DNA of 64,000 bases from a virus. The DNA lies in the IMG/VR virus record IMGVR_UViG_3300006310_000773; one strand, 5' to 3'. Made by a program: the position numbers and the translations under genes. The notes below the pieces were generated by a model. The model searched no databases and had not been told where the DNA came from. It worked only from the letters and a program-made list of their open reading frames with translations. Shown one piece after another: positions 47,767-64,000 of this stretch. Within the stretch, counting starts at the first letter, position 1. The number at the start of each line of letters is the position of its first letter.

Positions 47767-48662
47767 GATACATCGTCTCCATCAAGTGTTAAACTAAACC
47801 CAAAATCATCATCCGCTGCCGCATCTTCTGGTTTGGGTTTTATTCCAAGAGTTGCGGTTGTTTGTGTTGATGTATTTCCTAATAAATTTACGTCTGCAGA
47901 TTCTAAATAAAGTGATTCAGAATCTTCAGTTATTACGCTATTAATTGTAAATGCTGTACTACTTTCCAAAAGAAATCTATCTAAAGTACCAATATCCGCA
48001 TCCGCGTTTCCAGATACATTCTCAGGAACTATTATCTGAAGAGATATTTCCTTAATTGGTTTTCCACTAGTCGATAATTCTGGATACAGAAACGTTTTCA
48101 TTGTAAATTGCATATCCCATGATAAAGATCTTCTAGTTTCAAAATCTCCGTCATACGCATCTGTATAGTTAACAGAATTTAATATAATAGGACAATCGAC
48201 CGCAATATCCATTAAAGGTACAGTTTTAATAGTTACTGTAAATTCTGGTGTAAAATTTGGTAAAATCTGTTCAACAATTTGTGCAGCATCTTCTGCATTT
48301 TTTGCTAAAATAGCCAAATCAAAAATAAAATTATAAGGAACAGGATTATATTGTGTTCTTAATGTTCCAGATATAGAAGAAGAATTCTTACCAACAGTAT
48401 TCAATTTTCTTGTTCCATCATACATTATCTGACTCATCATAAACCCAATTCTAGGTAAAATTATTGCTGGAGTTCCTGCAAGAGCGGGATTTGCAATTCT
48501 AACCATAAATTTTTGTTTTGGTCCATAAGCAACAGGAATTTTTAAAGTTTCTACTACAACTCCGGATGAATTTACCCTTTTAACTGAAATATCATTAAAT
48601 AATGAACCAAAAGCAACAACCATTTTTCTGATTGTTTGATGATATGTCGATGTTCCAAACAT
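47757..48662 (-). CDS. g15: Tail sheath stabilizer/completion gp15
   Basis: FGSLFNDI, PVAYGPKQKF, QIVEQILPNFTP. Confidence 0.93.
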   Translation of the reverse strand: MFGTSTYHQTIRKMVVAFGSLFNDISVKRVNSSGVVVETLKIPVAYGPKQKFMVRIANPALAGTPAIILPRIGFMMSQIMYDGTRKLNTVGKNSSSISGTLRTQYNPVPYNFIFDLAILAKNAEDAAQIVEQILPNFTPEFTVTIKTVPLMDIAVDCPIILNSVNYTDAYDGDFETRRSLSWDMQFTMKTFLYPELSTSGKPIKEISLQIIVPENVSGNADADIGTLDRFLLESSTAFTINSVITEDSESLYLESADVNLLGNTSTQTTATLGIKPKPEDAAADDDFGFSLTLDGDDVSWT

Positions 48663-49507
48663 TATATGTTACCTTCAGAAAATGGATCTCTATCAGTGAA
48701 ATCAAATATTGAATCACTTTCAGTTTGAATACCTAAATTATTCGCCAGTGGATCTGTTAGAATTACCAGATCATCTGGCACTGCTGTCATAGACCAAGAT
48801 GCGGTACTTGCTACACCCACAACATCATATGCTGTAGTAATAGTACCAACAATATTTCCAACTCTCAAAGTCTTTGTAGTAGGAGCCCAAGAAAGAACTT
48901 TCATCGTAGCGTCTCCATTGCTACAATCTTCTCCTATCGTAAAAGTTCCTTCTCCTGAAGTAAATACCAAGTCCATCGAGTATCCATAATCTGTTTCAAT
49001 ATCGTCGATTGCCGCAATACCAGTATCCATATCCTCATGACTGTACTCAAACGTTTCACAAGTGAGAGTATATATTGGAAGATTCCCCAACTGATAAAAT
49101 ACTTTTTCATGTTCAACAAATCTAACTTCAAATAATTTATCATTTAATGGAAAATATATTAAATCTCCTTCATATGGTCTATCAAGTCTTCCTGGTATTT
49201 CTTCATCTTTCCACCGTCTTTGAGAAACATCTAAAATTACTTGATCTCGTATTTCAAGCCCAAATTGTCCTACCATATCACCTTCACCACTAAATCCATC
49301 AGTTGAATCAATATACATTTCTATTATATGTGCAGCTGAAAATTTAGAAGCGACATCTTCACTATACAAATTATCTACTGCAACTGATGTTCTAGGCAGA
49401 TAACTTATATCTATTCCATGTATTTTAATCGATTCTTCTACCAAATCGTTTAGTAAATTTTGTTCTGGTTGAAAATCAACATTTTGAAAATATGTAGATA
49501 CTGGCAT
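48662..49507 (-). CDS. g14: Neck protein gp14
   Basis: LVEESIKIHG, YLPR, RPYEGDLIYFP, FYQLG. Confidence 0.93.
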   Translation of the reverse strand: MPVSTYFQNVDFQPEQNLLNDLVEESIKIHGIDISYLPRTSVAVDNLYSEDVASKFSAAHIIEMYIDSTDGFSGEGDMVGQFGLEIRDQVILDVSQRRWKDEEIPGRLDRPYEGDLIYFPLNDKLFEVRFVEHEKVFYQLGNLPIYTLTCETFEYSHEDMDTGIAAIDDIETDYGYSMDLVFTSGEGTFTIGEDCSNGDATMKVLSWAPTTKTLRVGNIVGTITTAYDVVGVASTASWSMTAVPDDLVILTDPLANNLGIQTESDSIFDFTDRDPFSEGNI

Positions 49508-49510
49508 TTA

Positions 49511-50257
49511 TTATCCTACTGCAAAGTCGACTGGGAATTGATATTTTCCTTCTAAATCTTGTAACAATATTTCTATATTTGATTTAGCTTCATCTAAAAT
49601 TCTACCACCATCTAAAGTGGTTCCTCCAGGTAATTGTGTACCTTGATATTTAATTAAATTGTTTCCCCATTGTTTTCTAAACAATTCTGTAGTGTATTGT
49701 TTTAACCACATATCATTAAAAACATCCGTATGTGTAGTTGGATCAACGATTTGTACACATTCAGCAACGAGATAATCCCCCACATTAAATTCCTTAGACC
49801 AATCAACATCAACATATAATCTATCCTGATGCCTAGAAAATCTCATTCCTGGTTTCCCACTAAATACTTCTTGAAGTACTCCTAAATGTTGTTGTACTTG
49901 ATAGTATGATACTATTGAAGTTTTGGTTAAATCATAAATATCATTTAAATATAATTGATATCTAACATCAAACATGTTCTTTGTTGATCCACTATCCAAG
50001 GGAAAAACGGCTATAACACCAATAGTTGCCTCTAATAATGTAACGTATGAGTTATCAATATCATCTTGTGTTATTTCGTGTTTTAAAAATGTTTTAATTG
50101 TGGCATCTCCATGAAATTCTTGATACATTTGAAGACCTTCTTCCAATCTATCTTCCAGTTGATCCTCTTCAACATTGATCTGAATAACTGGTTTCCCTAA
50201 TGCCCTTAAACAATATTCTCTTAATTCTGTTCTTGACGCTGGTTGTGTAGCTGACAT
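49511..50257 (-). CDS. g13: Neck protein gp13
   Basis: YCLRALGKPVIQINV, QWGNNLIKY..LPGG.TLDG. Confidence 0.94.
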   Translation of the reverse strand: MSATQPASRTELREYCLRALGKPVIQINVEEDQLEDRLEEGLQMYQEFHGDATIKTFLKHEITQDDIDNSYVTLLEATIGVIAVFPLDSGSTKNMFDVRYQLYLNDIYDLTKTSIVSYYQVQQHLGVLQEVFSGKPGMRFSRHQDRLYVDVDWSKEFNVGDYLVAECVQIVDPTTHTDVFNDMWLKQYTTELFRKQWGNNLIKYQGTQLPGGTTLDGGRILDEAKSNIEILLQDLEGKYQFPVDFAVG

Positions 50258-50314: not shown

Positions 50315-50986
50315 ATGGAAATTTTGATTACTGGACACAATGGTTTCATTGGTTCTAATCTCTACAATTATCTTAATTCATATCATAATATTTATGGAAT
50401 TGACTACCCAAATGACATATTAAATACTGAGTTACCTAAAGTTGATTGTGTAATACATTTGGCGGGATCAACAGGCGTCAGAGAAAGTCACAAAAATCCT
50501 AAAAAATATTTAGATAATAATATAAAAATAACTAAAAGAATATTTGATCATTATAAAGATACAAAAATTCTATTTGCATCCACCTCTTCTGTAAAAGAAT
50601 TACAAAGTCCATATGCAATATCAAAATATGCATGTGAACTTATTGCTCCCAAAAACGTTGTTATTATGAGGTTTTTTACTGTTTGGGGAGATTATAATTA
50701 TAGAAAAAATATGTTATATGGACTAGCCATAGAAGGTAAATTAGACTATATTACTGAACATAAAAGAGATTTTACTCATGTATATGAAGTTTGTAGAGCC
50801 ATTAAAATACTAATAGATAAAGGAGTTGGTGGAGAACTTTATGAAATTGGTCACGGAAAACCAATATCCCCCCTTGACTTTTTGAAAAAGATAGGGTATA
50901 ATAAGGTGTTACCGTTTAGGAAAGTTGAAGGTGAATCTAATATAACTTGTGCAGATCCAACTAAAATGGAAGAATTGGGATGGTAA
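50315..50986 (+). CDS. NAD-dependent epimerase/dehydratase
   Basis: ITGHNGFIG, HLAG, YAISK, RDFTHV. Confidence 0.85.
   Translation: MEILITGHNGFIGSNLYNYLNSYHNIYGIDYPNDILNTELPKVDCVIHLAGSTGVRESHKNPKKYLDNNIKITKRIFDHYKDTKILFASTSSVKELQSPYAISKYACELIAPKNVVIMRFFTVWGDYNYRKNMLYGLAIEGKLDYITEHKRDFTHVYEVCRAIKILIDKGVGGELYEIGHGKPISPLDFLKKIGYNKVLPFRKVEGESNITCADPTKMEELGW
50874..50902 (+). promoter_or_regulatory. Internal sigma70-type promoter
   Basis: TTGACT-17-TATAAT upstream of the 50980 ORF. Confidence 0.55.
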
Positions 50987-51501
50987 TTGACTACTTTAAA
51001 AATGATTGGAAACCTAATTGGAGCAAATATTCTTATAGCGGTTGGGAACTTCTAAACAAAATATCAAATAATGAAACCATACTTGATATAGGTTGTGGTT
51101 ATAATCTCTTTAAAGGACGTTATGGTGATAAATTATATGGTATTGATCCCGCCAATGACAGTGCAGATGAAGTAATATCTATTGAAAAATTCGATGCTGA
51201 CGGTAAACAATGGGATGTGGTTTTATGTCTCGGTAGTTTAAATTTTGGATCTATAGAAGATGTTGAACCACAAGTACAAAAAGCTGTAAAATTAACCAAA
51301 GTTGGTGGAAGATTATATTGGAGACAAAATCCAGGACTAAATGATCATCGTTGGAAAAATCAAGAAAATATTACATTTTTTCCTTGGACATTTGATCTGA
51401 ATTATAAATGGGCAAAAAAATATGGATGCACAGTTATGGGAATGTTATGGGACGACGCTAGAATTTATTCAGAATGGATTAAGGAGAATGAATGTGTTTA
51501 A
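50980..51501 (+). CDS. Class I SAM-dependent methyltransferase
   Basis: ILDIGCG, GIDP, WDVVLCLGSLNF. Confidence 0.75.
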   Translation: MVIDYFKNDWKPNWSKYSYSGWELLNKISNNETILDIGCGYNLFKGRYGDKLYGIDPANDSADEVISIEKFDADGKQWDVVLCLGSLNFGSIEDVEPQVQKAVKLTKVGGRLYWRQNPGLNDHRWKNQENITFFPWTFDLNYKWAKKYGCTVMGMLWDDARIYSEWIKENECV

Positions 51502-52594
51502 CTACTGCTTTATAACCTAATCCTTCATTAACAAATCTTACTGCATTTTTTAATGTTGATTCATTTACCGCTTCATACATTCTTTTTATAATAAACTCAG
51601 AGTCTTGTCCAATAAATACCCCATAATTTCCTAATTTTTTTAATCTTTCTTTTTGAAATTCCTCATCGAACCACGTTTTTGTTGCAATTGTTACCATATC
51701 ATGATAATATACACTATCCGTAGTCACAAAAAAACTTTTTTGAATACCATCTCTCCACAATCTCAATAAAACATATGCATCATAAACCTCTCCTTTGGGT
51801 TTAAATCCATGAGTTTGTTCAAATATATAATCGAAACATAATCCTTTAAGTTCAGGATTTGGATCATCTACCCATTGACCTGTTTTATAATTCATTTGAC
51901 AATGATGAAACCATATTTCAAGTTCATTGTTAGATAATGCTTTTTTATATTTTGCATTACCTGTATAATTCTGAAAGGTGTCTCTACTTACATTCAATTC
52001 TCCATTTACAAATGCTACAATCCGCGCTCCTCCACTTTTCATACCTTTAACAATAATTACTCTATCTTTAAAACATTTCATAAATTTATCCATATCATTA
52101 GTCTCTGGACACACCATTAGTCCCGCCGCGAAATGATCTGGTTCTGATCCACCCCCAGGATTAAGTGCGAATTTTTGTTTATGGAATTTTGGATTATAAT
52201 CTATCCTTTTGGGAATAAGCATATTGCCAGGATGAATTAATATTGGTTTATATTTTCTAAAATCATAATTTCCAACATCTTCTAATAATGTTGCCATAGC
52301 ATTTCCACCATGACTAGTCATCATATAATTACCGTATTTCAATTTACTTTCAAATTTTCTTAGAGCATTTTTTCCTCTATTTCCTGGGATATATTTAAAA
52401 TCTATTTGTTCAATATTACCTGATAAATTATTATTCATATGTTTACCCCAAAGCCATGCCCATCTCGAGGTTCCTCCTGGCTTTGGTGAACTAGGAATAA
52501 CTGCGTACATTGTATCAGCATTAACCTGGCTGACCATAACCATTGTACCAAAAACAAACAACATACATAATACTAATTGAATAAATTTAAACAT
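51479..52594 (-). CDS. tctC: Tripartite tricarboxylate transporter substrate-binding protein (TctC/Bug-like, divergent)
   Basis: Signal peptide; PGGTSRWA, PGNRG, NGELNV; coupled to tctA. Confidence 0.65.
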   Translation of the reverse strand: MFKFIQLVLCMLFVFGTMVMVSQVNADTMYAVIPSSPKPGGTSRWAWLWGKHMNNNLSGNIEQIDFKYIPGNRGKNALRKFESKLKYGNYMMTSHGGNAMATLLEDVGNYDFRKYKPILIHPGNMLIPKRIDYNPKFHKQKFALNPGGGSEPDHFAAGLMVCPETNDMDKFMKCFKDRVIIVKGMKSGGARIVAFVNGELNVSRDTFQNYTGNAKYKKALSNNELEIWFHHCQMNYKTGQWVDDPNPELKGLCFDYIFEQTHGFKPKGEVYDAYVLLRLWRDGIQKSFFVTTDSVYYHDMVTIATKTWFDEEFQKERLKKLGNYGVFIGQDSEFIIKRMYEAVNESTLKNAVRFVNEGLGYKAVVKHIHSP

Positions 52595-54032
52595 AATCCA
52601 CCTTTACTTTTTTACTAAAAATGACCATCAATATTGATAACAACATTATTATAATAACGAATGGTCTTATAATTATTTCTTGAAAACTATACAAATCTAT
52701 CAATTGATATGAAAATTGTTCTAATCTTTCACTCAAAATAAATCCCAACAATACCGCTGGCCTGCTAATTTTAAAATGCTTCAGTATAAACCCACAAAAT
52801 GAAAACACAATAAAAAATATTGAATCTTCTAAAATAAATTCATAAAAATTTGAACTTATTATTGCCCACCATGTAACAAGTGCAACAAATGCTATGAAAA
52901 AATATTTATTGATACGAAATATTTTAGATATCGGCCCGGCTAATAATAATCCAAAAATTGTAACTGAAATAGTGCCGACTAGATAACCAATTATTATAGA
53001 ATTTATAAAATTTTTATCCTCTAATATATATAAATCTCCCATAGGAAATCCAATATATTCCCATAATCCCATCGCGATCATTGCCCATGTTGCACCAGGA
53101 ATACCTATGAGAATAGTGGGTATTAATGCTCCTGCCTTGCCGGCATTATTAACTCCTTCTGGTGCGACTATACCTTCTGGCGCGCCCTTACCAAATGGAG
53201 TTGAAAATACCCTTTTCATTTTTGTCGCTATACTATAAGAAATCCATTCTGAACCGCCACCACCATATCCCGGCAATAGTCCATAGAAAAACCCAATTAA
53301 TCCCCCAACAAAACCATGTTTCCATAAACGTATTGCATCAATTATACCTTTTTTTATTTGTTTAAAGTCACTATTTTCTTTAACAGATTTCATATCAAAT
53401 TTACACAATGTATATAATTCTGGAATACAAAATAATCCTGATGCCAATACTGCAATACCTATACCGTCATAAAGATAATATTCCATTCCAAATGCAAATC
53501 TTGGATTTCCTGTAACATCAGAACCAATTGATCCTAAACCAACACCTATAATTACTGCTAAAATACCTTTTAATGGTTTATTACTTGATAATAAACTTAC
53601 ACTCAAAAAACTAAACAATATAATAACCCACATCTCAGGAACTTTCATATATTGTAAAATATATTCATATAATGGAAGAACAATAAGAAATGGAACAAAC
53701 CAAATAATACCTTGTATACCACTAGTGGTTAATGCTAAACTAATTGCGTAAGAACTTTGTCCTGCTTTGGTGAGTGGGAATCCATCAACCATTGTCGCCG
53801 CAGAAGAATTAGATCCGGGAATTCCAATATAAACTCCTGAAAAACTATCTCCTATTGTGCACGCAACAACCGCTGCCATAGAAAATGCGACAAATTCATA
53901 TGGTATATGTGAAAAATGATTTACAACACTAAACAGCATTATTAATGCTTTGGTGGGCCCTGAAACGGGAATTATGCCTATAAATAATCCATAAAGTGAA
54001 CCCAATATAGTCCACATCAACAATTCAAACAT
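52587..54032 (-). CDS. tctA: Tripartite tricarboxylate transporter permease TctA
   Basis: GIPG..SAATMVDGFPL, GAPEGIVAPEGVNNA, LIPTILIGIPG, LGFILSERLE; multi-TM. Confidence 0.9.
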   Translation of the reverse strand: MFELLMWTILGSLYGLFIGIIPVSGPTKALIMLFSVVNHFSHIPYEFVAFSMAAVVACTIGDSFSGVYIGIPGSNSSAATMVDGFPLTKAGQSSYAISLALTTSGIQGIIWFVPFLIVLPLYEYILQYMKVPEMWVIILFSFLSVSLLSSNKPLKGILAVIIGVGLGSIGSDVTGNPRFAFGMEYYLYDGIGIAVLASGLFCIPELYTLCKFDMKSVKENSDFKQIKKGIIDAIRLWKHGFVGGLIGFFYGLLPGYGGGGSEWISYSIATKMKRVFSTPFGKGAPEGIVAPEGVNNAGKAGALIPTILIGIPGATWAMIAMGLWEYIGFPMGDLYILEDKNFINSIIIGYLVGTISVTIFGLLLAGPISKIFRINKYFFIAFVALVTWWAIISSNFYEFILEDSIFFIVFSFCGFILKHFKISRPAVLLGFILSERLEQFSYQLIDLYSFQEIIIRPFVIIIMLLSILMVIFSKKVKVDYV

Positions 54033-54047
54033 AATTTTTATAATTCT

Positions 54048-54482
54048 TTATACGGGAAATACTTCTTTAGCTTCATTATTAAATATAATTTGACAATTAT
54101 CACATACTCTCTTTGCATAGTCATTTGCATCAGGAATACCTGTCTCACTTATAATATAATGTGCTTTCTCTACTGTTCTAGTCCACCCAATTCCCGCAGG
54201 CAATGTATCAAGAGGTTCATCTTTTATTTGGTCCCATCTTTTGTCAGAAAATATAAATGTTTTTTGAAATCCATTTCCATTTTGCGTAAGCTCGTCAGTT
54301 ACTACTAAATCACCATTTTCTAGATCATCATTTATATCATTGTCAGATGCCAGTAGATACTGTCCTTTGGCGGCTTCGATGTCATCACTGAACATTGCTA
54401 AAGCCTCAGATAAAGTTTCAAATGATGAAAAATCTAATTTTGAAAAAGATTTTTGAAAAGTTATAATAAGTCTTGCAGACAT
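54048..54482 (-). CDS. Hypothetical protein (paralog of 54530-54922)
   Basis: LTQNGNGFQKTFIFSDKRW...GIGWTR. Confidence 0.6.
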   Translation of the reverse strand: MSARLIITFQKSFSKLDFSSFETLSEALAMFSDDIEAAKGQYLLASDNDINDDLENGDLVVTDELTQNGNGFQKTFIFSDKRWDQIKDEPLDTLPAGIGWTRTVEKAHYIISETGIPDANDYAKRVCDNCQIIFNNEAKEVFPV

Positions 54483-54495
54483 TTTAAATTCCTTT

Positions 54496-54523
54496 TATTT
54501 ATATGGTTACATTTATATTTATA
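54496..54523 (-). promoter_or_regulatory. Tandem T4-type late promoters
   Basis: TATAAATA at 54496-54503 and 54516-54523. Confidence 0.6.
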
Positions 54524-54529
54524 TAAAGT

Positions 54530-54922
54530 TTAAATTTCTATTCGATTCCATCCGTTTCCTACTACAGGAACTGGAATTGATTGAACAATTGCCCATCGTT
54601 CATCAGTCCATGTTCTAGTAATTTTAAAACCAGTTTTGTCGACTGTCAATTCTTGTATGTGTTTTTCATACAGATAAGAATTCCAGGAATCATCTATCTC
54701 GTCGCCCCCTTTTGCTATCGTCCTAATTTCTTTTACTCCAGCGCCTTCTATTACTTTTTTAAATTTCGTATTAATTCCTAAAGTCTTAGATTGGGAGAGC
54801 TCCGCATCGAATGTATTAACTATATGAGGATTCGCCTTCTCAAATGCCATCTTTGCTTCCACGACAGTTGAATAAGTAGTTCCTGTAATATTTGTGAATA
54901 TGACTATGGTTGTTACTGACAT
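54530..54922 (-). CDS. Hypothetical protein (paralog of 54048-54482)
   Basis: LTVDKTGFKITRTWTDERW...GNGWNR. Confidence 0.6.
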   Translation of the reverse strand: MSVTTIVIFTNITGTTYSTVVEAKMAFEKANPHIVNTFDAELSQSKTLGINTKFKKVIEGAGVKEIRTIAKGGDEIDDSWNSYLYEKHIQELTVDKTGFKITRTWTDERWAIVQSIPVPVVGNGWNRIEI

Positions 54923-54924
54923 TT

Positions 54925-55533
54925 CTATTCTTCTTCGTATATAATGTAGTCCTTATATTTGTTGATACTTCTTTTTAAAATTTCATAGTGTTTTTGTTTA
55001 TTAACCCAAAAATGAGTAAAAAGTATAAATCTATCAGGATCATAATTACCACCATGAGTTGTATCTGTACTTCGTATAACACACCAATCAGTATCTATTG
55101 GCATTTTAGCTAAAACTGTTTCTCCATTATTTTTTTGAATATAAGGATTTTTAATATTGTTATCATATTGTATTGTCATTCGATAGCCACATGGTTGTAA
55201 ACTTTTTTCATGTTTCCATAAATCTGCGTTTTTATCTGGTGTTAAAAAATCAATATGCATTTCAGTAGCCTTTAAATAATTATTAATTCTAACATTAACT
55301 AGATGATCAATTGGTAAATTTTTATCAATATATTTTGTTAGAGAAGATTCTTCAATCCACGATGATTTACTATAATTTTTATTTGTTGTAGTAAATTTTT
55401 GATATTGAAATGCTTGAGCACCTGTTCCATCATCCGGCGGTGAGTCACCAACAAAATTATCTATAAGATCTTTTTTATATTGATATTTTGGAATGTCGAC
55501 TGGCATCCATAAAATATTATCAAAATTATTCAT
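54925..55533 (-). CDS. Putative 2OG-Fe(II) oxygenase/cupin-like protein
   Basis: MHID...THGG..R facial-triad-like pattern. Confidence 0.45.
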   Translation of the reverse strand: MNNFDNILWMPVDIPKYQYKKDLIDNFVGDSPPDDGTGAQAFQYQKFTTTNKNYSKSSWIEESSLTKYIDKNLPIDHLVNVRINNYLKATEMHIDFLTPDKNADLWKHEKSLQPCGYRMTIQYDNNIKNPYIQKNNGETVLAKMPIDTDWCVIRSTDTTHGGNYDPDRFILFTHFWVNKQKHYEILKRSINKYKDYIIYEEE

Positions 55534-55542
55534 ATTTCTTTC

Positions 55543-56124
55543 TTAACGTTTTTTAAATACAGTCATAAAATGTCTTTGTTGTCCTTCATCTTCAGTAAGT
55601 ATAGAATCAACTTTTTCCGAAGAAATAATATCCAAATATTCTTGATCTCTCCATCCAAATGCTGTAAGAGGATCATCATTTCCATGAGCTGATACTGATG
55701 CTACCATCATTCCATTTTTTTCTAAAGAATCTGAAAAGAATTTTGCTGTATCTGATTGAAGATGTGATTTGTTAAATCCTCCAATAATTGTTATACATTT
55801 ATATTTTCTTGGTAATGGAAATTCTTTCATATCATGCAAAATTATGTCACGATAATTAGTCGCCTCAAATGTATCAATCATTTTTTGATTAACATCATAT
55901 CCATCTATAATATAATCATTATTATTAAAACCAATACCAATCTGACCATTACCACATGCAACATCTGCTATTTCAGTACCTAATTCAAAATTCCTTTTTA
56001 CCCAATCACATGCATAACGTATAGGACCTTCCATCCAACCGACCTTCATTGTCCAAGCGTGATAATCCCAATCCTTATATAATTCTTCAACACTTTTACT
56101 ATAAACTTCATCAAGCCAAGTCAT
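55543..56124 (-). CDS. SAM-dependent methyltransferase
   Basis: IADVACGNG, DGYDVNQKM. Confidence 0.75.
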   Translation of the reverse strand: MTWLDEVYSKSVEELYKDWDYHAWTMKVGWMEGPIRYACDWVKRNFELGTEIADVACGNGQIGIGFNNNDYIIDGYDVNQKMIDTFEATNYRDIILHDMKEFPLPRKYKCITIIGGFNKSHLQSDTAKFFSDSLEKNGMMVASVSAHGNDDPLTAFGWRDQEYLDIISSEKVDSILTEDEGQQRHFMTVFKKR

Positions 56125-56127
56125 ATT

Positions 56128-57009
56128 TTATTCCTTTATAATAGTTGTGTAATCAAATGCGACTCTCCATAATTCTCTAGACTTATTCACAACATGTGAA
56201 CGTCTATGTATAGTATACAATTGATCCATAATTAATAAATCTCCCTTTTTAAATACAAAATGTTTTTGATATATTGACCTATCTAATATTTTTTTAAGTT
56301 TATCTTTTATAATATTTACATCTATCAACTTTCCATTTTTCCATGCCTTTTCTGTTAAAGATGGTTGCCAATATAAAAATTCTTCTCCACCAATTGGATG
56401 AACATTCACAATTGACATGCGTTCATCTCCCTTATGATGTGCCGGAATAGTATAATCTTTCACAACAGCAATCTCATTATCCTTGCCGGCCATTGTGTAT
56501 TTCACTTCATGCGCCATCATGTTCCCAATTGCTTCCCGGTCAGCCCGATCCTTTTGTGCGTCATCTATAGATCCGAATACGCCATAATTAAAATTATTTA
56601 ATTGTATTTCAACAGTACGCCAGTAATCTTTTTCATTATTAGGTAAATCTAAAAAAGATCTTCTTTGATCTAATAAACTAAAAACAGTATCACGACATTC
56701 TTCCACACAATACAAAGCAGTTAATATTTCTTTAAAATCTCCTATATGTATCATAGTACCATCCCCATGCCACTCTAAATCTGCCATACCAAACAAACCT
56801 TTATACATTACTCTCGATATATCTGGATTATCTTTTGGATTAAAAGGCATGTAACCCAACACATCATCGTCTGTATTTCCTATACGCCTACAATAATTAA
56901 CTAATTGAGATTGAGTTAAATTCTGTTCGTGATAAAAAGTATAGCCATGTTTTAATACTTTCTGTATTTCTGATTTTAATTCTAAATCTGTAAATTCTAA
57001 TACTTGCAT
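56128..57009 (-). CDS. TauD/TfdA-family dioxygenase
   Basis: WHGDG, ALYC, HP, GDLLIMDQ..TIHRR, RELWR. Confidence 0.82.
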   Translation of the reverse strand: MQVLEFTDLELKSEIQKVLKHGYTFYHEQNLTQSQLVNYCRRIGNTDDDVLGYMPFNPKDNPDISRVMYKGLFGMADLEWHGDGTMIHIGDFKEILTALYCVEECRDTVFSLLDQRRSFLDLPNNEKDYWRTVEIQLNNFNYGVFGSIDDAQKDRADREAIGNMMAHEVKYTMAGKDNEIAVVKDYTIPAHHKGDERMSIVNVHPIGGEEFLYWQPSLTEKAWKNGKLIDVNIIKDKLKKILDRSIYQKHFVFKKGDLLIMDQLYTIHRRSHVVNKSRELWRVAFDYTTIIKE

Positions 57010-58434
57010 TTATATTTCACTATGTGGTTTAATACTCAATGTTGATATTATTTCATTAGGAAAATCATCTAACAAACTTACTAATTTTGATTTTTGATGT
57101 TTCGTTTTTCCACCATAATACAATTTTTCAGTAACATGATATATATTATGCGGACGTTTATATTTTTGAAGTTCTTCAAACCGTTTAGCAAGATTATTAA
57201 TATCAGCCGATCCTGTATAAATTACATAATGTATTTCATCACGAGAACAACTTGATACCTCATTAACTCCTGGTTCTAGTAATGCTTGAGCCTCTACTAA
57301 TCCTGTGTAAACTTTTACGCCATCTTTCATAAAAATTACATCATCAAAAACTCTACCATCATAATACCATTTTCCGTTCGCAATTTTCATTTTATCACCA
57401 TCAGTCATCCAATCATTAAGTCCATACTTGTACCACAATACGCCCCCATCATCTACTTTTAATTCTCCCCAATAATAAGTTTTATAAAAACCATAAAAAT
57501 TATCTAATGAATCTCCTGGCCTATATTCAGATCTTGTATGACAATCCGCTTCAGTGCTCGCCATTACATTATAAATTACTTTCCATTTAAACTTTTTCTC
57601 AATATCTCTAATAATATTTTCTCCCGTATGCCCTCCAGCAAATTCCCAATAATCTACCTCAAAATCAAAATCATCAGGACATGCATCAAGTAATCTTTTT
57701 ACAGCATTAGGATAAGACGCCACAAGATTTGGTTTCACTTTTTGAAATTGTTCTGGAATATTATCCACTGTTTCATTTATAAAATGAATTGTTCCGCCTG
57801 TATAATAAGCTCTAGCTAAATTCCAAACAAGATAGGTTGATTCAAATCCTCCATTTTGTAACATTATGGGTCTTTTATTATTAAAAAGTTCAGGGGATAC
57901 TTCTTTCAAATGTCCGGTCATAGAACCCATTGTACAACCCCTCAATGTTTCCCCATTAACATTAGCTTGAGCATGATCCTCATAATCCCAAAAAAATGGC
58001 CATAATTCAAATATAGGTTTTACTGTAGTACCACTAGTCATTCCTCTATACATCTCATTGGGGTGTAATAATGTGGAAGGAATTTTGCCCTCACTATCTG
58101 GTTCATGTAACATTTTAATTTTATTTGAACGTATAACACAACTGGCATTACTGTCACCAATTAAAGAATCTAATTCTATATTTGATTGATCTGCTGAAGC
58201 TTGACTAGCTGATCCACCATTTTTTATACTAGCAAGAATCCATAACATATCATCCAGAGTTTTAACTTCTTCAGCTACTACAAAAACAACATGAGGTCCC
58301 AATCCGTGTTTTTTTAAAATTTCAATTTTTTCATCTAACATGTTATGTAAATTTTTCCATGTAACATGTTCTGTTGATAAACTTATGAATACATCATCTT
58401 CATTAAGCGGTGCTTGATATTGTTTTAGTGTCAT
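57010..58434 (-). CDS. AMP-binding (adenylate-forming) enzyme
   Basis: MTSGTT P-loop, ASTE, TDGD..GR..D hinge, C-terminal GKTK. Confidence 0.7.
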   Translation of the reverse strand: MTLKQYQAPLNEDDVFISLSTEHVTWKNLHNMLDEKIEILKKHGLGPHVVFVVAEEVKTLDDMLWILASIKNGGSASQASADQSNIELDSLIGDSNASCVIRSNKIKMLHEPDSEGKIPSTLLHPNEMYRGMTSGTTVKPIFELWPFFWDYEDHAQANVNGETLRGCTMGSMTGHLKEVSPELFNNKRPIMLQNGGFESTYLVWNLARAYYTGGTIHFINETVDNIPEQFQKVKPNLVASYPNAVKRLLDACPDDFDFEVDYWEFAGGHTGENIIRDIEKKFKWKVIYNVMASTEADCHTRSEYRPGDSLDNFYGFYKTYYWGELKVDDGGVLWYKYGLNDWMTDGDKMKIANGKWYYDGRVFDDVIFMKDGVKVYTGLVEAQALLEPGVNEVSSCSRDEIHYVIYTGSADINNLAKRFEELQKYKRPHNIYHVTEKLYYGGKTKHQKSKLVSLLDDFPNEIISTLSIKPHSEI

Positions 58435-58880
58435 ATTTTCTCTTCAGGATAATACCACCATCCAGCATCTGGTTCATATTTAAATATCGATATTCCCACT
58501 CTTTCAGTTTCAATATTTTCTATTGAATGTTCTATACCAGCATTAAACTTGTGCCATTTTTTTTCTGGTATACATGTTCTATAAAGTTCTTTACCTTTGT
58601 CCCACCACACAGTTTCTACATTGCTGCCACCTGCTTGTAAAATATAATTATAATTTGTAGTCCTATCAACATCAATATGTTTGGGTATACCATTTCTTAA
58701 AATTTGATACTTGAAATTATCACATTCAGGAAATAAATGTTTTAGAAAATTTGTTAACTCATCTTCACAATAATAAATTCCGTATATTTCTTTATTTCCT
58801 GGCCAAATATTTTCTTTTAATTTTATTGATTCAGTATCTAAAAAACAAGGTGGGCCTGGTAAATCTAAAAATTCAATCAT
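58431..58880 (-). CDS. Small 2OG-Fe(II) oxygenase-like protein
   Basis: PKHID.DR..NY, WH.FN..HSI..R. Confidence 0.6.
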   Translation of the reverse strand: MIEFLDLPGPPCFLDTESIKLKENIWPGNKEIYGIYYCEDELTNFLKHLFPECDNFKYQILRNGIPKHIDVDRTTNYNYILQAGGSNVETVWWDKGKELYRTCIPEKKWHKFNAGIEHSIENIETERVGISIFKYEPDAGWWYYPEEKI

Positions 58881-59526
58881 TTTTTCTTATCTCTATCAAA
58901 TTTTTAAGAGTTTCATATACATACATTTTATATTCTTCATCTGTACCCTCAAATAAATCACGCATAACTGCATCTTTATTTTCTTCTAATCTTTTTGCAT
59001 GAGATGTGAGATAATTTGGTCTAAAATCTGACAAGTTTAAATAAGCTGGAAAGTTTGCAGTAGTTTTTAAATAATGCTCAACAACAACATTTATATCATT
59101 TGGTATTATTTCTTCTATCCTAGCATTAGGAAACGTTGCTTTTATTTTTGACTTTGTTACATGCACAGGATACATTATATATTTTCCACTTTCCATTATT
59201 TCTAAACCACCTCGTGCCTCAAACAGTTTTTCAAATAATGGATAATATTCATCAATATCATTATAGTAAGGTTCAATTACATTAAATAATGGGGGTAACA
59301 TTTTGCCGTCTATCATTCTATCAAAATGATTTGGAGCAACTAATCTGCGTGATATTGAATATTCATTGATTGATGTATCAAGTGGAACTATACCATTTTC
59401 TTTACAAGAATACCAATATACGTCATCATTATCATTAGCAAGGTTTCTGCCTAATCTATGTCCACCCGCACCTTGTTCAAATGCAATGAATAAAAATTTA
59501 TCATGTTCAAATAAGTCTACCATCAT
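58873..59526 (-). CDS. Hypothetical protein (possible sulfotransferase/P-loop-like fold)
   Basis: FIAFEQGAGGHRL N-terminal loop; likely start MMVDLF. Confidence 0.45.
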   Translation of the reverse strand: MMVDLFEHDKFLFIAFEQGAGGHRLGRNLANDNDDVYWYSCKENGIVPLDTSINEYSISRRLVAPNHFDRMIDGKMLPPLFNVIEPYYNDIDEYYPLFEKLFEARGGLEIMESGKYIMYPVHVTKSKIKATFPNARIEEIIPNDINVVVEHYLKTTANFPAYLNLSDFRPNYLTSHAKRLEENKDAVMRDLFEGTDEEYKMYVYETLKNLIEIRKND

Positions 59527-60190
59527 AATACATTCTATTATTATTATAGTGGGATTCAATTAAATAAACTAAATCATTTGTATTATACCAATCATCATAG
59601 ATACACGTATCTCCCCTTACAAATAATTTACCATCTTCAATCTTCCAATCACAATAATACGTATCACCCAATATTGTTTCTTTTCTTTTAACTTCTTGTA
59701 TTTGATCCAAATTATAAAACACTTTATTAATTGTTAAGGGTCCTATTTCACTCATACCCCAATTTGCCATAAATGTTGCTCCTTTGTTTACAAATGATTC
59801 TATAATATGCCATTCAACAGGATTGGAACCACAAGTAATCCATATACCCTTTAAATTTAAATCCTTAAATCCTTTTGTTTTAATAATTGCTTTTGCATGA
59901 TCTGGAGCTAAATGAGTATGAGTATATTTGTTTATTTCTTTAACAAATTTATAAGCATTAAATTGTTCAACTGTTACCTCTGCACCAATACTAAAGGCGG
60001 GTAAGGTTTGTGCCAATAATCCTCCTGCATGCTCCATTTTACATACAGTATAAATTTTAGATTTTTTTGTAATTTGTTGACATTCTATTGCTATCTTATT
60101 ACATGCCTCTAAATTTTCTGGAGTCCTAAAAATATGTTTTTGTATTCCTGTTGTACCACTACTTTTAACAAAAACTCCTTCGCTTAACAT
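59507..60190 (-). CDS. Short AMP-binding-like enzyme (core only)
   Basis: SSGTTG..K, HAGGL, WGMSEIGP, WYNTND..DGR. Confidence 0.7.
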   Translation of the reverse strand: MLSEGVFVKSSGTTGIQKHIFRTPENLEACNKIAIECQQITKKSKIYTVCKMEHAGGLLAQTLPAFSIGAEVTVEQFNAYKFVKEINKYTHTHLAPDHAKAIIKTKGFKDLNLKGIWITCGSNPVEWHIIESFVNKGATFMANWGMSEIGPLTINKVFYNLDQIQEVKRKETILGDTYYCDWKIEDGKLFVRGDTCIYDDWYNTNDLVYLIESHYNNNRMYYDGRLI

Positions 60191-60704
60191 ATTCTTGTAC
60201 ATTTAATTTCCATATAGTTTGTTCTGTATGATATAATATAGTATCACATACTTTATCAAGTATTCCTTGTTTTGCTAATAAACCCATTAATTTATGATTT
60301 CGTAATGCCTTACCACTATGCTCATTGGAAATATTTGTAGTTATATACAAATTATCTGTATGACAATAATCTATATAAACTGGGATAAAATCTCTCCATG
60401 TTATTGTATTCCAATTACCTTTATTCAATCCACTATAAGGACTTATTTTAGGTAACTCACATCCTCTGAAATTAATTCTCCATCCGTTTTCATCTATTTC
60501 TGGTAATGGATGACAACCACCAACGGCAACAATTTCATCATCTTTGATTGCACAATAGTATTCACCCCAATCTTTACACCATTCTAGTTTCATTGACTTA
60601 AAGGATGAGTTATTTGTATATCCTAAGTCTTTACATTTATCACAAAATATTTGGAGTTTGCTATGTAGTTGATTAGTGATTGGTTTTATATTGAAAATCC
60701 CCAT
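60165..60704 (-). CDS. GNAT-like acyltransferase
   Basis: DDEIVAVGGCH..WRINFRG pattern. Confidence 0.5.
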   Translation of the reverse strand: MGIFNIKPITNQLHSKLQIFCDKCKDLGYTNNSSFKSMKLEWCKDWGEYYCAIKDDEIVAVGGCHPLPEIDENGWRINFRGCELPKISPYSGLNKGNWNTITWRDFIPVYIDYCHTDNLYITTNISNEHSGKALRNHKLMGLLAKQGILDKVCDTILYHTEQTIWKLNVQEYVKRRSFC

Positions 60705-61330
60705 GCTCTTTCCTGACACCACCAACATATACCACAATGTCCTAATTTTGGGTCTTTAACATTTTGTGCTTCCCATTCACATGATCTAGTATATACAAAT
60801 AAACTATCTATTAAATTATATTCTTTATATATTTGGGCTAGTTTCTTTTTATCTATATTAATCCAGGGTGTATATGCTTTATTATTATTACGTAAAACGT
60901 CTTTCATAATAGTAGGATTTCTGTCTACTTCTGTAACTTCTTCTATAAATGTATCAGTAATAGATTTTGGTGGATTAGCAGTAATTCCTGTATAGAAAAT
61001 ATTTATTAATTTATTTTTTCTATAATAATCTAATTTATCAAATATATTACTTAATGTTTGATGGTCACAAAATGTACTATGATGTTCTATGTTTATATTT
61101 CCGGTTAATTCGATACATTTTTGAATAACATTATTAGTTGTTGTAACATTTTTAAATTGTCTTGCTTTATTTCCAGTAGATAAAATATAGATTTTATCAT
61201 TAGAATATTTCATTAAAAAGTATAAAAGCAAAGAACTATCAGCTCCGCCGCTACAACTTATACCTATAGGACCTTCATATATTTTTAAATTGACTCCGGA
61301 TAAATTTAATTCTTTTTTAATTAAATTCAT
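60686..61330 (-). CDS. QueC-like PP-loop ATPase
   Basis: SGGADS, TRSC, HCGICWWCQER zinc motif. Confidence 0.7.
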   Translation of the reverse strand: MNLIKKELNLSGVNLKIYEGPIGISCSGGADSSLLLYFLMKYSNDKIYILSTGNKARQFKNVTTTNNVIQKCIELTGNINIEHHSTFCDHQTLSNIFDKLDYYRKNKLINIFYTGITANPPKSITDTFIEEVTEVDRNPTIMKDVLRNNNKAYTPWINIDKKKLAQIYKEYNLIDSLFVYTRSCEWEAQNVKDPKLGHCGICWWCQERAWGFSI

Positions 61331-61959
61331 GGTTCTATTAGATTTGTTACTGTTGACACAGATTCTTCTGTTAATTTAATATTCATTATTAATACAATAT
61401 GATCATCCTCATCATTGGCATTAAATATTGTATGCCGTTTACAAGTATTTAAAAAATATAAACTACCATAATTCCAATGTAATACATTATCATATTGATA
61501 TATAAAATATCCCCCATCTAACGGATTACATACTAGTAAAGGGACAATTAATCTAAAACTATCTATTGTAGATCCCATATTATCTACATGACTTGGAAAA
61601 AATCCGCCTGGTTTTAATTTTAAAATATGAGATCTAAATAACCATTCTTTAAAAGGATCACAATATAATTTTAATACATCATAAACAGGTGTTGGTACAA
61701 TAAAATCAGATTCAGTTATATTTGTATTATTTTCTTTATTATACTCATATAAACTATCTAAATCAGGCCCAGGTCCTAAATTGCCGTCTAAATTAGTTAC
61801 ACTCAATCCCCAACGATTTATATGTTTTCTAGGATTATATTTTGTCCAATTATCATCAAATTGGATTAATCTTTCTAACATAGTCTTCGAATTTTGATAT
61901 ATGTTTAATTTAACTTGATCCCCATATGCTGTTAGAGTATTAAATAATTCAAAACTCAT
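61327..61959 (-). CDS. Aspartyl/asparaginyl beta-hydroxylase-like 2OG oxygenase
   Basis: RSHILKLKPGGFFPSHVD, YFLNTCKRHTIFN. Confidence 0.7.
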   Translation of the reverse strand: MSFELFNTLTAYGDQVKLNIYQNSKTMLERLIQFDDNWTKYNPRKHINRWGLSVTNLDGNLGPGPDLDSLYEYNKENNTNITESDFIVPTPVYDVLKLYCDPFKEWLFRSHILKLKPGGFFPSHVDNMGSTIDSFRLIVPLLVCNPLDGGYFIYQYDNVLHWNYGSLYFLNTCKRHTIFNANDEDDHIVLIMNIKLTEESVSTVTNLIEP

Positions 61960-62980
61960 ACGTTGTATCTCCTGGCCATAGTGGTAATTGTACACCCACT
62001 TTTCTTTTTGGTATTTTACTATCAGCAGAACTCACGCAATTATCAGTAATGCATGGCATAGGTTTGTCAAATAATTTAAATCCAGTTTGAATATTTCCTA
62101 AAGGTATATCAGAGCAAGAATATGACCGCTTAATGCTCCCACAAGGCTCGCGTATAATAATACTACGATATCCCGACGAACAGATCCAGCCTTTGAATTC
62201 ATTAAAATTAAACGCATTAAATCTTTCGGCTTGATCCATTTCATGCACAATCCCTTTCGAATCAATTAACTCTATTTCCATTTGTGGGGTTTGAGACTCA
62301 TTATGCAATATGTCTAACTGACTTTTAGTATATCCATCTACTACTTTTGTCGCCGTAGGATTAGATTGGGGTTTTAAAGTTGTATGAATACCCCTCTCTT
62401 TAAAATATAAAACATGATCTGTTAATGTCCAAAATTTCTCAGGTATCATTACCATATTAATAGTAATTCTTACACCATTATCTTGACAATATACTAATTT
62501 GTCTGTAAATTCTTCAATCTTTTTTTCAGTATCTAAATGTTCAAAATGAGCAGATGCGGTTATTGAAGCCCTATCAAATTTTTTAGCATATTTGATATAT
62601 GTTTCAAACCATTTCATCTTTCTTGAACAGTTTGACGTCATATGTATTCTCTGTCTCTTAGAATATTTATCATCTGCAAGATATTTTAATATATCCAAAT
62701 ATCCAGGATGAAATGTTGGTTCTCCACCAGACAAAGACCAATTAAATGAATTAAATCCTTGTTCTCTCGCCTGACGTTTTATTTCATCTATTGTTGTTAA
62801 ACACAACTCTGTAGGTCTATGATCTTTCTTATCTGATCTCGCGTATGGCCAACAATAAGAACAGTGATAATTACAAAATCTTCCTAATAACCATGACACA
62901 GTAAAGGTATCATGATATAACATGGTTTTTGTTCCTACAAGTTGTATATCATCAAATGGAATTTTAGTAAAATCATTCAT
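61949..62980 (-). CDS. Radical SAM protein
   Basis: CNYHCSYC, SGGEPT, C-terminal C..G...C...C...C cluster. Confidence 0.9.
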   Translation of the reverse strand: MNDFTKIPFDDIQLVGTKTMLYHDTFTVSWLLGRFCNYHCSYCWPYARSDKKDHRPTELCLTTIDEIKRQAREQGFNSFNWSLSGGEPTFHPGYLDILKYLADDKYSKRQRIHMTSNCSRKMKWFETYIKYAKKFDRASITASAHFEHLDTEKKIEEFTDKLVYCQDNGVRITINMVMIPEKFWTLTDHVLYFKERGIHTTLKPQSNPTATKVVDGYTKSQLDILHNESQTPQMEIELIDSKGIVHEMDQAERFNAFNFNEFKGWICSSGYRSIIIREPCGSIKRSYSCSDIPLGNIQTGFKLFDKPMPCITDNCVSSADSKIPKRKVGVQLPLWPGDTTYEF

Positions 62981-64000
62981 ATTAAATATTTTTTAATTCG
63001 TGGATGTAAACTTTCCGCAGCACTTGTATTTCTAATTTTGTCTTGTATTCTTGTATGTTTTTTAAAATGATGTCTTAATTCCTCTACACTATTTGGTTTA
63101 ATAGTAGGAAATACAGTTGGTAAAAATAAATCCCATATTGGATCATTTAAACATGTTTGAACAGGAGTTAATGTTTTTTCTATAAATTCCTCATCTTTAA
63201 TATTTTCTTCTTTAATTAAATCATTGATTTCTTTTATTATAAATTTTTTATCTTCTTCAAATAAAATAGCAGGATGAAAATGTGGTGGATCTTCACACGC
63301 CTGAATATATGCAGCTCCAACAGATGCACGCCCTTCAGGATATCCTTCTTTTCTCATATTATAAAAATATCTTGCCCATTCTTTTACATCAAAAATATTA
63401 TACATTTGTACAACCATGTTAATTGAAAGATGTGTAAGATTGGGAAGAGTTTGTAATTCATTAATATTTTGTAATACTGCGTTCCATTTGGCATTTGTTC
63501 TTATATACTCATATGTTTTTCCTATACCATCTAAACTCGCGCAAATATTTAATTTATTAAATTGTTTAAATAATTGCCAATGTTTATTAAAATTTGTGCA
63601 ATTAGAAGTGATATTTAAATGTAAATCTGTATTATCTTCTTCAATTAACTTCTCTAAAAATGCTATTGAATCTGGATCTACTGTAGGTTCTCCACCCAAT
63701 ATGTTTAATCTCTCTATAAGTGTAAAATCAATATCAGAAAGAAAATTATTAATATCCATATTATTTGAAATTTTTCCTTCAGGTCTACCCATGTAATATT
63801 GATATAACACCGGATGAAGTTCTAATTCTTTATATATTTCTGTACTATTTCCTGGATCACACATACGACATTTTAAATTACAAACATTACCAGGACGAAT
63901 ATCTAATGCCAATGGTTGTTTATCTCGATTTCCATATTTTAAATCTGGAGTAACATGGCCGTCTCGTTTTATAAATTCTTGTCTATCACTAGACCATCCC
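62977..64000 (-). CDS. Radical SAM protein (N-terminus beyond the window)
   Basis: CNLKCRMC, GGEP, SLDGIG..YEYIR; frame stays open to the window edge (GWSSDRQEF...). Confidence 0.88.
   Translation of the reverse strand, partial: GWSSDRQEFIKRDGHVTPDLKYGNRDKQPLALDIRPGNVCNLKCRMCDPGNSTEIYKELELHPVLYQYYMGRPEGKISNNMDINNFLSDIDFTLIERLNILGGEPTVDPDSIAFLEKLIEEDNTDLHLNITSNCTNFNKHWQLFKQFNKLNICASLDGIGKTYEYIRTNAKWNAVLQNINELQTLPNLTHLSINMVVQMYNIFDVKEWARYFYNMRKEGYPEGRASVGAAYIQACEDPPHFHPAILFEEDKKFIIKEINDLIKEENIKDEEFIEKTLTPVQTCLNDPIWDLFLPTVFPTIKPNSVEELRHHFKKHTRIQDKIRNTSAAESLHPRIKKYLI

Follow-up and report, generated by a model that had tools for sequence, protein, structure and literature searches.

A radical-SAM array with exchangeable tailoring cassettes in the structural region of a T4-like phage genome

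The last 13.7 kb (positions 50315–64000) of a 64,000-nucleotide stretch of DNA from a marine, uncultured T4-like phage (IMG/VR record IMGVR_UViG_3300006310_000773), hereafter the window, form part of a large run of enzyme genes in which radical S-adenosylmethionine (SAM) genes dominate. The window is the minus strand of an IMG/VR contig (C1/L003) of 88,952 bases, estimated to be 35% complete. The initial annotation described this region as an island of more than 13 kb of tailoring enzymes resembling a biosynthetic gene cluster. Every class of enzyme that it listed is present, but the size was understated: the flagged segment makes up the distal half of a 26-gene co-directional run (g05–g30) that covers 27.4 kb (contig positions 3340–30707), of which 14.8 kb lie past the window edge, and the island reaches ~31 kb when the divergent genes beyond g05 are included. 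The proposal of one cluster does not hold for the part in the window. Because block g17–g28 is exchangeable while smaller units survive across phages, gene comparisons lead us to divide this part into three layers: the end of a conserved radical-SAM array (g15–g16), an exchangeable 7.9-kb block, and a separately promoted transporter pair (g29–g30) together with a methyltransferase–epimerase pair (g31–g32).

Operon layout and the radical-SAM array

Genes in the run are tightly packed. As noted initially, most are overlap-coupled: 18 of the 25 junctions overlap and 23 span at most 9 nt, with the longest overlaps possibly overstated because starts of open reading frames (ORFs) were set at the most upstream ATG, GTG or TTG. 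The only two junctions longer than 9 nt are those before g28 (47 nt) and before the TctA gene, g29 (15 nt). Ten TATAAATA sites occur in the 89-kb contig, two of them inside the 47-nt gap, and CATAAATA is present in the 40-nt region preceding g05. Late-promoter motifs are found at two points only in the operon, and the arrangement suggests that g05–g30 is a single late-transcribed operon, co-transcribed in design. Beyond g05 lie four divergent genes (g01–g04) and the hydroxylase-like g00; past these, a near-identical contig encodes gp8, a 2003-aa DUF4815 (VrlC-like) protein and an 811-aa protein. The island thus lies between tail-fibre/VrlC-like genes and neck genes, upstream of the latter as originally placed (Table 1).

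This exact version of the island recurs in 14 DNA runs, with 96–98% of sampled words present; 13 of these runs, spread over three or more other studies, are additional to the run from which the DNA may derive. At the DNA level, the island had no match among 50,697 phage isolates. RNA-library contigs from four runs in three studies fall on the island; of its 30 bins, they cover 30, 26, 11 and 11. In an rRNA-depleted metatranscriptome (run X17), the longest contig on an 18-kb stretch (1302 nt, depth 17.6) maps to TctA at window positions 52414–53695, and most other parts of the island are bare. This coverage is a hint of transcription only, because contigs cannot rank genes or exclude DNA carry-over. 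A PHROGs scan of 20 island and flanking products returned three matches, none informative on the pathway.

The operon holds nine intact radical-SAM domains in eight proteins, and the CX3CX2C motif is present in all nine. Seven domains lie just beyond the window edge and two, in g15 and g16, are those recognized at the outset. Six domains belong to family NF033640 (N_Twi_rSAM), namely those of g05, g11 (twice), g12, g13 and g15, with scores of 250–396 bits against a cut-off of 170. Four N-terminal cysteines and the GGE SAM-binding motif are invariant among these N-terminal-twitch (N-twitch) domains, which at 22–40% identity are old paralogues; their alignment was too divergent to seed a genome scan. 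The g15 domain scores 262.9 bits and has its CX3CX2C motif at residue 134. The enzymes g06, g07 and g16 lie outside NF033640. Of these, g16 is the last gene of the conserved array here; it scores 48.8 bits with NF033640, under the cut-off, and carries extra cysteines at its C-terminal end. A viperin-like or MoaA-like function of the radical-SAM genes was considered and rejected, with scores far under the cut-offs.

The expansion of NF033640 to six paralogues includes two kinds of fusion. The first, g11 (L003:8669–12907; 1412 aa), contains two tandem N-twitch modules after a 520-aa N-terminal region with no family match. The second, g12 (L003:12894–15356; 820 aa), joins an N-twitch radical-SAM domain to a ~320-aa class-I aminotransferase-like pyridoxal phosphate (PLP) domain, in which an SLSK lysine and an aspartate are invariant in 20 sequences. 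The PLP-domain profile matches aminotransferase 3if2 (E 6e-4) across the PLP site. A g12-type PLP domain is also encoded as a gene of its own beside N-twitch genes in other phages and in Bdellovibrionota.

A possible functional parallel for g12 comes from antibiotic biosynthesis. BtrN is a twitch radical-SAM dehydrogenase that works with a partner aminotransferase in the biosynthesis of the 2-deoxystreptamine of butirosin. Both systems link a radical-SAM enzyme with one auxiliary cluster to a PLP aminotransferase, which suggests conversion of an alcohol to a ketone and then to an amine on a carbohydrate-like scaffold. By its sequence, g12 differs in having its twitch at the N-terminal rather than the C-terminal side, a class I/II-like rather than a DegT-like PLP domain, and both domains in a single chain; sequence similarity to BtrN is not detectable. 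Twitch enzymes and BtrN have been reviewed (PMC4326806, PMC10337720). A literature phrase search on the annotation name of NF033640 returned no paper on the function of the family.

The exchangeable block and the transporter pair

In two phages with flanks that are 93–98% identical to those of the window, different genes occupy the interval between g16 and TctA. The replaced segment spans window positions 54049–61939 (7.9 kb) and corresponds exactly to g17–g28. A related locus, L039, has a rearranged gene order; its g28 is 44% identical to that of the window and the next gene, TctA, 94%. For a broader comparison, 80 loci were kept from more than 583 matched IMG/VR stretches that encode g16 relatives, with g16 being 57–84% identical in these. 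The g16 orthologue usually closes the radical-SAM array. Genes g05 and g06 are present in 64 and 60 of the loci, a PP-loop gene in 33 and a β-hydroxylase-like gene in 18, and the rarer members of the block include g24 (five loci) and g23, g25, g27 and g28 (two each). Three units are kept across distant phages: g19–g20–g21, g24 with g26 (relatives co-occur in L076 and L129), and g29–g30. Part of the outcome that the initial annotation named as refuting its proposal, free shuffling of gene content with no conserved sub-cluster, is therefore observed: the block is swapped between near-identical phages, yet sub-clusters are conserved.

These boundaries might mean that the genes share no pathway and form a mosaic of independently acquired auxiliary genes, co-transcribed through the compactness of a recombination-tolerant region. 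The abrupt edges at 54049 and 61939, the rearrangement in L039, the rarity of most cassette genes in the 80 loci and the separate promoter of TctA all agree with such a mosaic. Less easily accommodated are the units that keep their membership across distant phages, the recurrence of hydroxylase, PP-loop, GNAT, ligase and TctC classes in unrelated arrays and in Bdellovibrionota, and the recovery of the exact version in the 13 further DNA runs. On balance we regard a mosaic as improbable.

Table 1. Features of the distal half of the island and its border (window coordinates)
Feature	Position	Strand	Details
g15, N-terminal-twitch radical-SAM enzyme	62977..64000	-	434 aa, start beyond edge at C1:17905
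g16, radical-SAM enzyme, C-terminal four-cysteine cluster	61949..62980	-	Pfam Radical_SAM 57.5 bits
g17, 2-oxoglutarate (2OG)/Fe(II) β-hydroxylase-like oxygenase	61327..61995	-	First gene of exchangeable block
g18, PP-loop ATPase, QueC/TilS-like	60686..61330	-	QueC 27.1 bits, cut-off 22; ATP_bind_3
g19, predicted GNAT-fold acyltransferase	60165..60737	-	AlphaFold2 (AF2) pLDDT 83, pTM 0.80
g20, truncated adenylating (ANL) core	59507..60202	-	231 aa; AMP-binding 43.7 bits, profile positions 170–341
g21, protein travelling with g19–g20	58873..59559	-	228 aa; no Pfam or PHROG match
g22, protein with HxD motif	58431..58880	-	149 aa; relatives in L039, L116, L119
g23, full-length adenylating (ANL) enzyme	57010..58434	-	AMP-binding 35.2 bits
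g24, TauD-family 2OG dioxygenase	56128..57009	-	TauD 36.5 bits, cut-off 27
g25, class I methyltransferase-like	55543..56124	-	Methyltransf_25 23.5 bits, below cut-off 27; motif I DVACGNG
g26, unnamed ~200-aa family, H-x-D...H	54925..55533	-	202 aa
g27, small protein	54530..54922	-	130 aa; paralogue of g28
Intergenic gap	54483..54529	-	Sole sizeable gap of run; two T4-type late-promoter motifs TATAAATA
g28, small protein	54048..54482	-	144 aa; paralogue of g27; first gene after late promoters
g29, TctA, large membrane subunit of tripartite tricarboxylate transporter (TTT)	52587..54032	-	PF01970 264.6 bits
g30, secreted TctC/Bug-like solute-binding protein	51479..52594	-	Signal peptide; 8-nt overlap with TctA
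g31, methyltransferase-like	50980..51501	+	Convergent with operon; Methyltransf_23 E 0.004, phrog_4752 5.7e-6; motif I LDIGCGYN
g32, short NAD-dependent sugar epimerase/dehydratase-family protein	50315..50986	+	223 aa; PF01370 77.6 bits
Neck and head–tail adaptor genes (gp13/gp14 type)	48662..50257	-	Border island; T4_neck-protein 126.5 bits, phrog_211 adaptor 6.8e-38

Most assignments made initially within the block stand. For g17, the 12 relatives all share the HxD...H residues H136, D138 and H188, and its profile matches the PDB β-hydroxylase 7v4o (2e-5) as well as proline hydroxylases; the Pfam match is only E 0.0065. The QueC-like g18 carries an SGGADS motif and the TauD-family g24 has invariant H81, H268 and R270. 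The GNAT call on g19, which has no Pfam match, holds at the level of the predicted fold: its AF2 model gives 127 PDB matches at E <= 1e-3 in Foldseek, and all among the matches listed are GNAT-type acetyl/acyltransferases. The two adenylation enzymes differ in completeness. Full-length g23 has motifs A3 (TSGTTVKP), A5, A7, A8 (DGRVFD) and A10 (GKTKHQK); its counterpart in the near relative L039 is only 57% identical, and L036 yielded no detectable homologue. In g20 the first ~170 residues are missing, as is the C-terminal subdomain, and the protein retains motifs A3 to A8 only, beginning with SSGTTG at residue 14 and ending at the A8 hinge (YYDGRLI). This short form recurs in loci L036, L126, L143 and L089. 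A single frameshifted ligase spanning g19–g20 was considered and rejected, because the g19 model has a GNAT fold and the two remain distinct genes in relatives, in some cases with another gene intervening. When g23, g24 and g18 were searched against the PDB as single sequences, nothing was found.

Other assignments can be retained in part. The two additional 2OG oxygenases proposed initially, g22 and g26, have the HxD...H motif as their only mark, and g22 has no match in family scans. The g26 family includes 352 cluster representatives at E <= 1e-3, with H93, D95 and H160 invariant in 52 relatives; no Pfam match was found with these 52 and no PDB match with profiles of 7 and 52 sequences, and hhalign alignment of g26 with g17 has a probability of 0.4. 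From its motif, g26 is possibly an oxygenase. The two methyltransferases, g25 and g31, contain motif I and score below Pfam cut-offs. Paralogy of g27 and g28 rests on a BLASTP match of E 3e-6 (36% identity over 39 aa); both are predicted to be soluble, and g27 has no transmembrane segment and no cysteine. Four sulfotransferase families are the named ESM-Atlas clusters closest to g21 (0.88–0.90), a lead only towards a sulfotransferase-like protein.

The TctA assignment is well supported, since the g29 match spans positions 1–423 of the 423-position PF01970 profile; the protein has 11 hydrophobic segments. The neighbouring g30 was annotated as TctC, for which its signal peptide and structural matches speak: the top Foldseek matches of its model are MatC, BugD and TphC, and in VIA the 11 best matches are all TTT binding proteins (Z 7.9–9.1; next Z 6.1). 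Against this, the model has a pLDDT of only 61 and there is no Pfam TctC match even at E 5. Only six homologues of g30 were found among 5.8 billion proteins. A canonical TctC (8e-21) occurs in the array of another phage. The g29–g30 pair is conserved and lies downstream of late promoters. It resembles TctABC in combining a full-length TctA with an adjacent secreted protein for which the Bug/TctC fold is the best structural match, and it is unlike TctABC in being phage-encoded, in lying behind late promoters and in the failure to find TctB: no further island protein has a predicted membrane segment (the contig represents ~35% of the genome).

Convergent with the operon, g31 has relatives of 37–60% identity in L095, L126 and L143. 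The epimerase call on g32 is borne out by its score and by GxxGxxG and YxxxK motifs, though the protein is short. Ralstonia phage RsoM2USA, a Bdellovibrio isolate and L084 have weak relatives of g32 within their radical-SAM loci.

Counterparts in other phages and in Bdellovibrionota

The g05 family is large, with 2392 homologues at E <= 1e-10, and the ESM-Atlas clusters of the N-twitch family are 97–100% viral. A tblastn search with g05 against phage isolates gave four weak records only. The cultured Ralstonia phage RsoM2USA carries a minimal form, in which a single N-twitch gene is accompanied by a g02-like and an epimerase-family gene. The g02 family (g02, L003:1149–2042) is the commonest partner of g05–g06. 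It has a Rossmann-type GxG/acidic motif pattern, and the only PDB leads for g02 are five spermidine synthases (E 0.13–0.24, not significant); an S-adenosylmethionine decarboxylase is encoded in one related array. Two other IMG/VR contigs, G002 (216 kb) and G005 (62 kb), have the g05–g06 pair and g02-like genes with no large array at that site; going by their CheckV completeness (42% and 12%), the full genomes would measure about half a megabase. The paralogues g01 and g04 share a DxD motif (hhalign 97%) and have no Pfam match, and a profile of g04 alone found nothing significant in the PDB.

A census of accessory genes covered 149 non-redundant ORFs from ~78 related arrays, in which the commonest families are Asp/Arg hydroxylase, QueC/PP-loop, B12-radical SAM, nitroreductase and fatty-acid desaturase. 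Arrays of other phages (L067–L146) contain B12-binding radical-SAM enzymes, nitroreductases, FMN reductases, fatty-acid desaturases, a carbamoyltransferase, canonical TctC (E 8e-21) and an ABC-type binding protein.

Several reports have touched on arrays of this type. Nishimura et al. (2017) pointed out 12 radical-SAM genes in an environmental T4-like genome (PMC5332604). Zaragoza-Solas et al. (2020) described a hypervariable host recognition cluster (HRC) between VrlC and gp14 of pelagimyophages, with cassettes of GT8 transferases and radical-SAM genes that differ between close genomes (PMC7029224). The island matches the HRC in position, with fibre-side genes upstream and neck genes downstream, and in its relative-specific content. 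Like the HRCs of pelagimyophages and cyanomyophages, it is large and non-syntenic, and its putative glycosyltransferase-like, Asp/Asn hydroxylase and radical-SAM cassettes vary among close relatives. The HRC study operates at the level of gene categories and proposes modification of the host O-chain from the GT8 genes; it does not resolve the N-twitch family, a conserved core, Bdellovibrionota counterparts, a TctA/TctC pair or cassette boundaries (PMC7029224). In a 2025 cyanomyovirus paper, an adjacent PLP enzyme, radical-SAM enzyme and amidinotransferase of S-SCSM2R are termed ‘antibiotic genes’ (PMC12801897). None of these three papers assigns a function to radical-SAM arrays.

The last report bears on the possibility that the operon makes a free small molecule, such as an antimetabolite, signal or cofactor, from an amino acid or organic acid in the infected cell. 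As is typical of pathways that tailor amino acids, the island combines aminotransferase-like, TauD, β-hydroxylase-like, ANL, GNAT, PP-loop and methyltransferase proteins. Such a pathway could be fed by a carboxylate importer, and the cyanomyovirus ‘antibiotic genes’ (PMC12801897) offer a precedent. The operon has no carrier protein, condensation, ATP-grasp or export gene, it appears to be expressed late within the structural region, and its bacterial counterparts have glycosyltransferase neighbours. Gene content that differs between phages 93–98% identical would also be odd for a fixed product, and a free small molecule thus seems improbable to us. The QueC-like g18 also raised the idea of 7-deazaguanine-type DNA hypermodification, which was rejected in the absence of a TGT/DpdA family from the 89-kb record, a weak argument given that only 35% of the genome is covered.

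Outside phages, the PLP-domain profile was run against 185,579 species genomes and located 18 loci, all but one in Bdellovibrionota/Oligoflexia. Homologues of g05 (53–55% identical), g06 (46–48%) and g16 (50–55%) are found in Bacteriovoracaceae and Halobacteriovoraceae. We read the neighbourhoods on a 2.9-Mb Bacteriovoracaceae chromosome and a Halobacteriovoraceae contig. In both, these homologues, N-twitch paralogues and the PLP protein stand together in a run that counts seven to ten radical-SAM genes and is flanked by GT2 glycosyltransferases. Phages and Bdellovibrionota share, in this way, the conserved core of g05, g06, g16 and N-twitch paralogues. The Bacteriovoracaceae run adjoins a weak PMT_2 match and an FAD oxidoreductase, and the Halobacteriovoraceae run adjoins a weak QueC-family gene.

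Two further cellular settings were observed. A Bdellovibrionales metagenome-assembled genome (L065:10001–13448, L066:10001–14718) has a minimal module of the PLP protein and two or three N-twitch genes amid ordinary metabolic genes, with no glycosyltransferase nearby; small ORFs beside this module were inspected as precursors and were not convincing. JGI metagenome contigs L040–L043 (250–640 kb, GC 44%) belong to a cellular genome with N-twitch genes, the PLP protein, a g06/g07-like radical-SAM gene, a 589-aa Asp/Arg-hydroxylase protein, a sulfatase, an asparagine synthase, a weak HTTM match and several transposases.

Radical-SAM/SPASM clusters that mature peptides made on ribosomes and modified after translation (RiPPs) resemble the island in packing several SPASM/twitch genes with hydroxylases, but the island has no precursor peptide, RiPP recognition element (RRE), leader peptidase or exporter. 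The NCBIfam maturase models are not reached (best 20–58 bits against cut-offs of 300–650). Pfam scans of island proteins detected no PqqD/RRE family and no PP-binding, condensation or thioesterase match, in keeping with the early remark that no carrier protein or RiPP leader is visible. There is also no room for a precursor-peptide gene, because only two junctions exceed 9 nt (15 and 47), and the smallest island products are 102–144 aa. A RiPP or nonribosomal peptide synthetase-like cluster is accordingly less likely than tailoring of a glycoconjugate.

Peptide-type chemistry could instead act on a virion protein, with the enzymes crosslinking, oxidizing or hydroxylating fibre or baseplate residues by RiPP-like logic on a structural substrate. 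The best-known role of SPASM/twitch radical-SAM enzymes is the maturation of peptides and proteins, and maturases of this kind account for most of the weak NCBIfam matches. Asp/Arg β-hydroxylase-like genes are the commonest accessory family in the census, the operon has late promoters and sits among structural genes, and a large structural protein as substrate would account for the absent leader peptide. The missing RRE/PqqD domain and small precursor still count against it, as do the Bdellovibrionota clusters we read, which adjoin glycosyltransferases and have no evident fibre or precursor gene. Six paralogues sharing 22–40% identity would moreover need six distinct target sites. We therefore consider virion-protein modification unlikely.

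Possible substrate and role of the operon

Taken together, the observations lead us to propose tentatively, with a probability of roughly 0.4, that the operon is a late-expressed modular system tailoring a sugar-bearing molecule, or glycoconjugate, that is tied to host recognition. A sugar-bearing substrate is favoured because GT2 glycosyltransferases adjoin the bacterial counterparts that were read, because an epimerase-family gene recurs here, in RsoM2USA and in a Bdellovibrio isolate, because the paralogues g01 and g04 share a DxD motif and have a GT8 enzyme as a lead, and because peptide-cluster hallmarks are absent. The late character of the operon and its place in the structural region also speak for this reading. 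The initial annotation had allowed for a small molecule or for modification of virion proteins, peptides or the host surface; of these products a peptide or RiPP is the least supported and a surface or virion glycoconjugate the best, by association only.

In this scheme, the glycan acted upon would be borne either by the virion fibres or by the envelope of the infected cell. The radical-SAM core would oxidize or rearrange C–H positions of the scaffold, and the g12 fusion could convert an alcohol to a carbonyl and then transaminate it, as BtrN does with its partner aminotransferase. Cassette enzymes would then add acyl or amide groups (the two ligases, the GNAT and the PP-loop enzyme), hydroxyls (the TauD and β-hydroxylase-like oxygenases), methyl groups and perhaps sulfate. 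The TTT importer may supply a carboxylate that is activated by the ligases, and swapping of cassettes would alter the final decoration between otherwise identical phages.

Phage systems with known or suspected roles in glycan chemistry offer a partial parallel. Phage-encoded virion glycosylation is reported in mycobacteriophages (Freeman et al. 2023, PMC10527164), and cyanomyophages such as S-SCSM2R carry cell-wall or lipopolysaccharide (LPS) gene sets (PMC12801897). As in the island, sugar-handling genes of these phages are in or near the structural region. Those systems rest on recognizable glycosyltransferases and have at most one radical-SAM gene, whereas radical-SAM genes dominate the island and its transferase-like genes are not recognized by Pfam.

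Several points weigh against glycoconjugate tailoring. The census has no canonical glycosyltransferase family among its 25 commonest, and the GT8 likeness of g01 and g04, their sole PDB lead, is not significant (E 0.22). The g12 PLP domain is of the amino-acid (class I/II) type rather than the DegT sugar type, the epimerase g32 is short (223 aa) and on the opposite strand, and the island has no nucleotidyltransferase or sugar-activating gene. TauD, AspH-like hydroxylases and ANL ligases are just as characteristic of chemistry on amino acids and peptides. Having its own promoter, the g29–g30 pair of TctA and its partner may be an independent nutrient-uptake pair.

The modified moiety might also be a lipid, or the acyl chains of lipid A/LPS, instead of a sugar. 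Proteins g11, g16 and g07 weakly match the tetraether lipid synthase Tes, related arrays contain fatty-acid desaturases (3) and a lipase, and the weak PMT_2 match in the Bacteriovoracaceae cluster is to a membrane sugar-transferase family. The Asp/Arg hydroxylase family also includes the lipid A hydroxylase LpxO. All such matches are far under the family cut-offs, no enzyme of the island has a predicted membrane segment apart from TctA and the g30 signal peptide, and there is no acyl carrier or lipid A-type acyltransferase. Lipid modification is very improbable on this evidence.

A wider form of the glycoconjugate proposal is that T4-like marine phages and predatory Bdellovibrionota share a radical-SAM chemistry that builds hypermodified decorations of recognition surfaces, whether virion fibres or the envelope of prey or host. 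The phage would vary the product by swapping cassettes and feed the pathway late in infection through its own TctA/TctC, and the g12 fusion would aminate unactivated carbons. We put this forward as a doubtful, speculative extension.

The radical-SAM core is common in IMG/VR, yet its main family, NF033640, is without a recorded reaction in the phrase-searched literature. The sharp cassette boundaries amount to a natural experiment in which identical backbones carry different tailoring sets, and the TTT importer and the radical-SAM–aminotransferase fusion are directly assayable. Bdellovibrio-type bacteria, which share the core, and the cultured Ralstonia phage with its one-gene form are open to genetics. 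The array sits in the region of marine T4-like genomes that is thought to set host range, a position that links a little-studied enzyme family to the ways in which phages of abundant ocean bacteria vary the surfaces used for recognition or exclusion.

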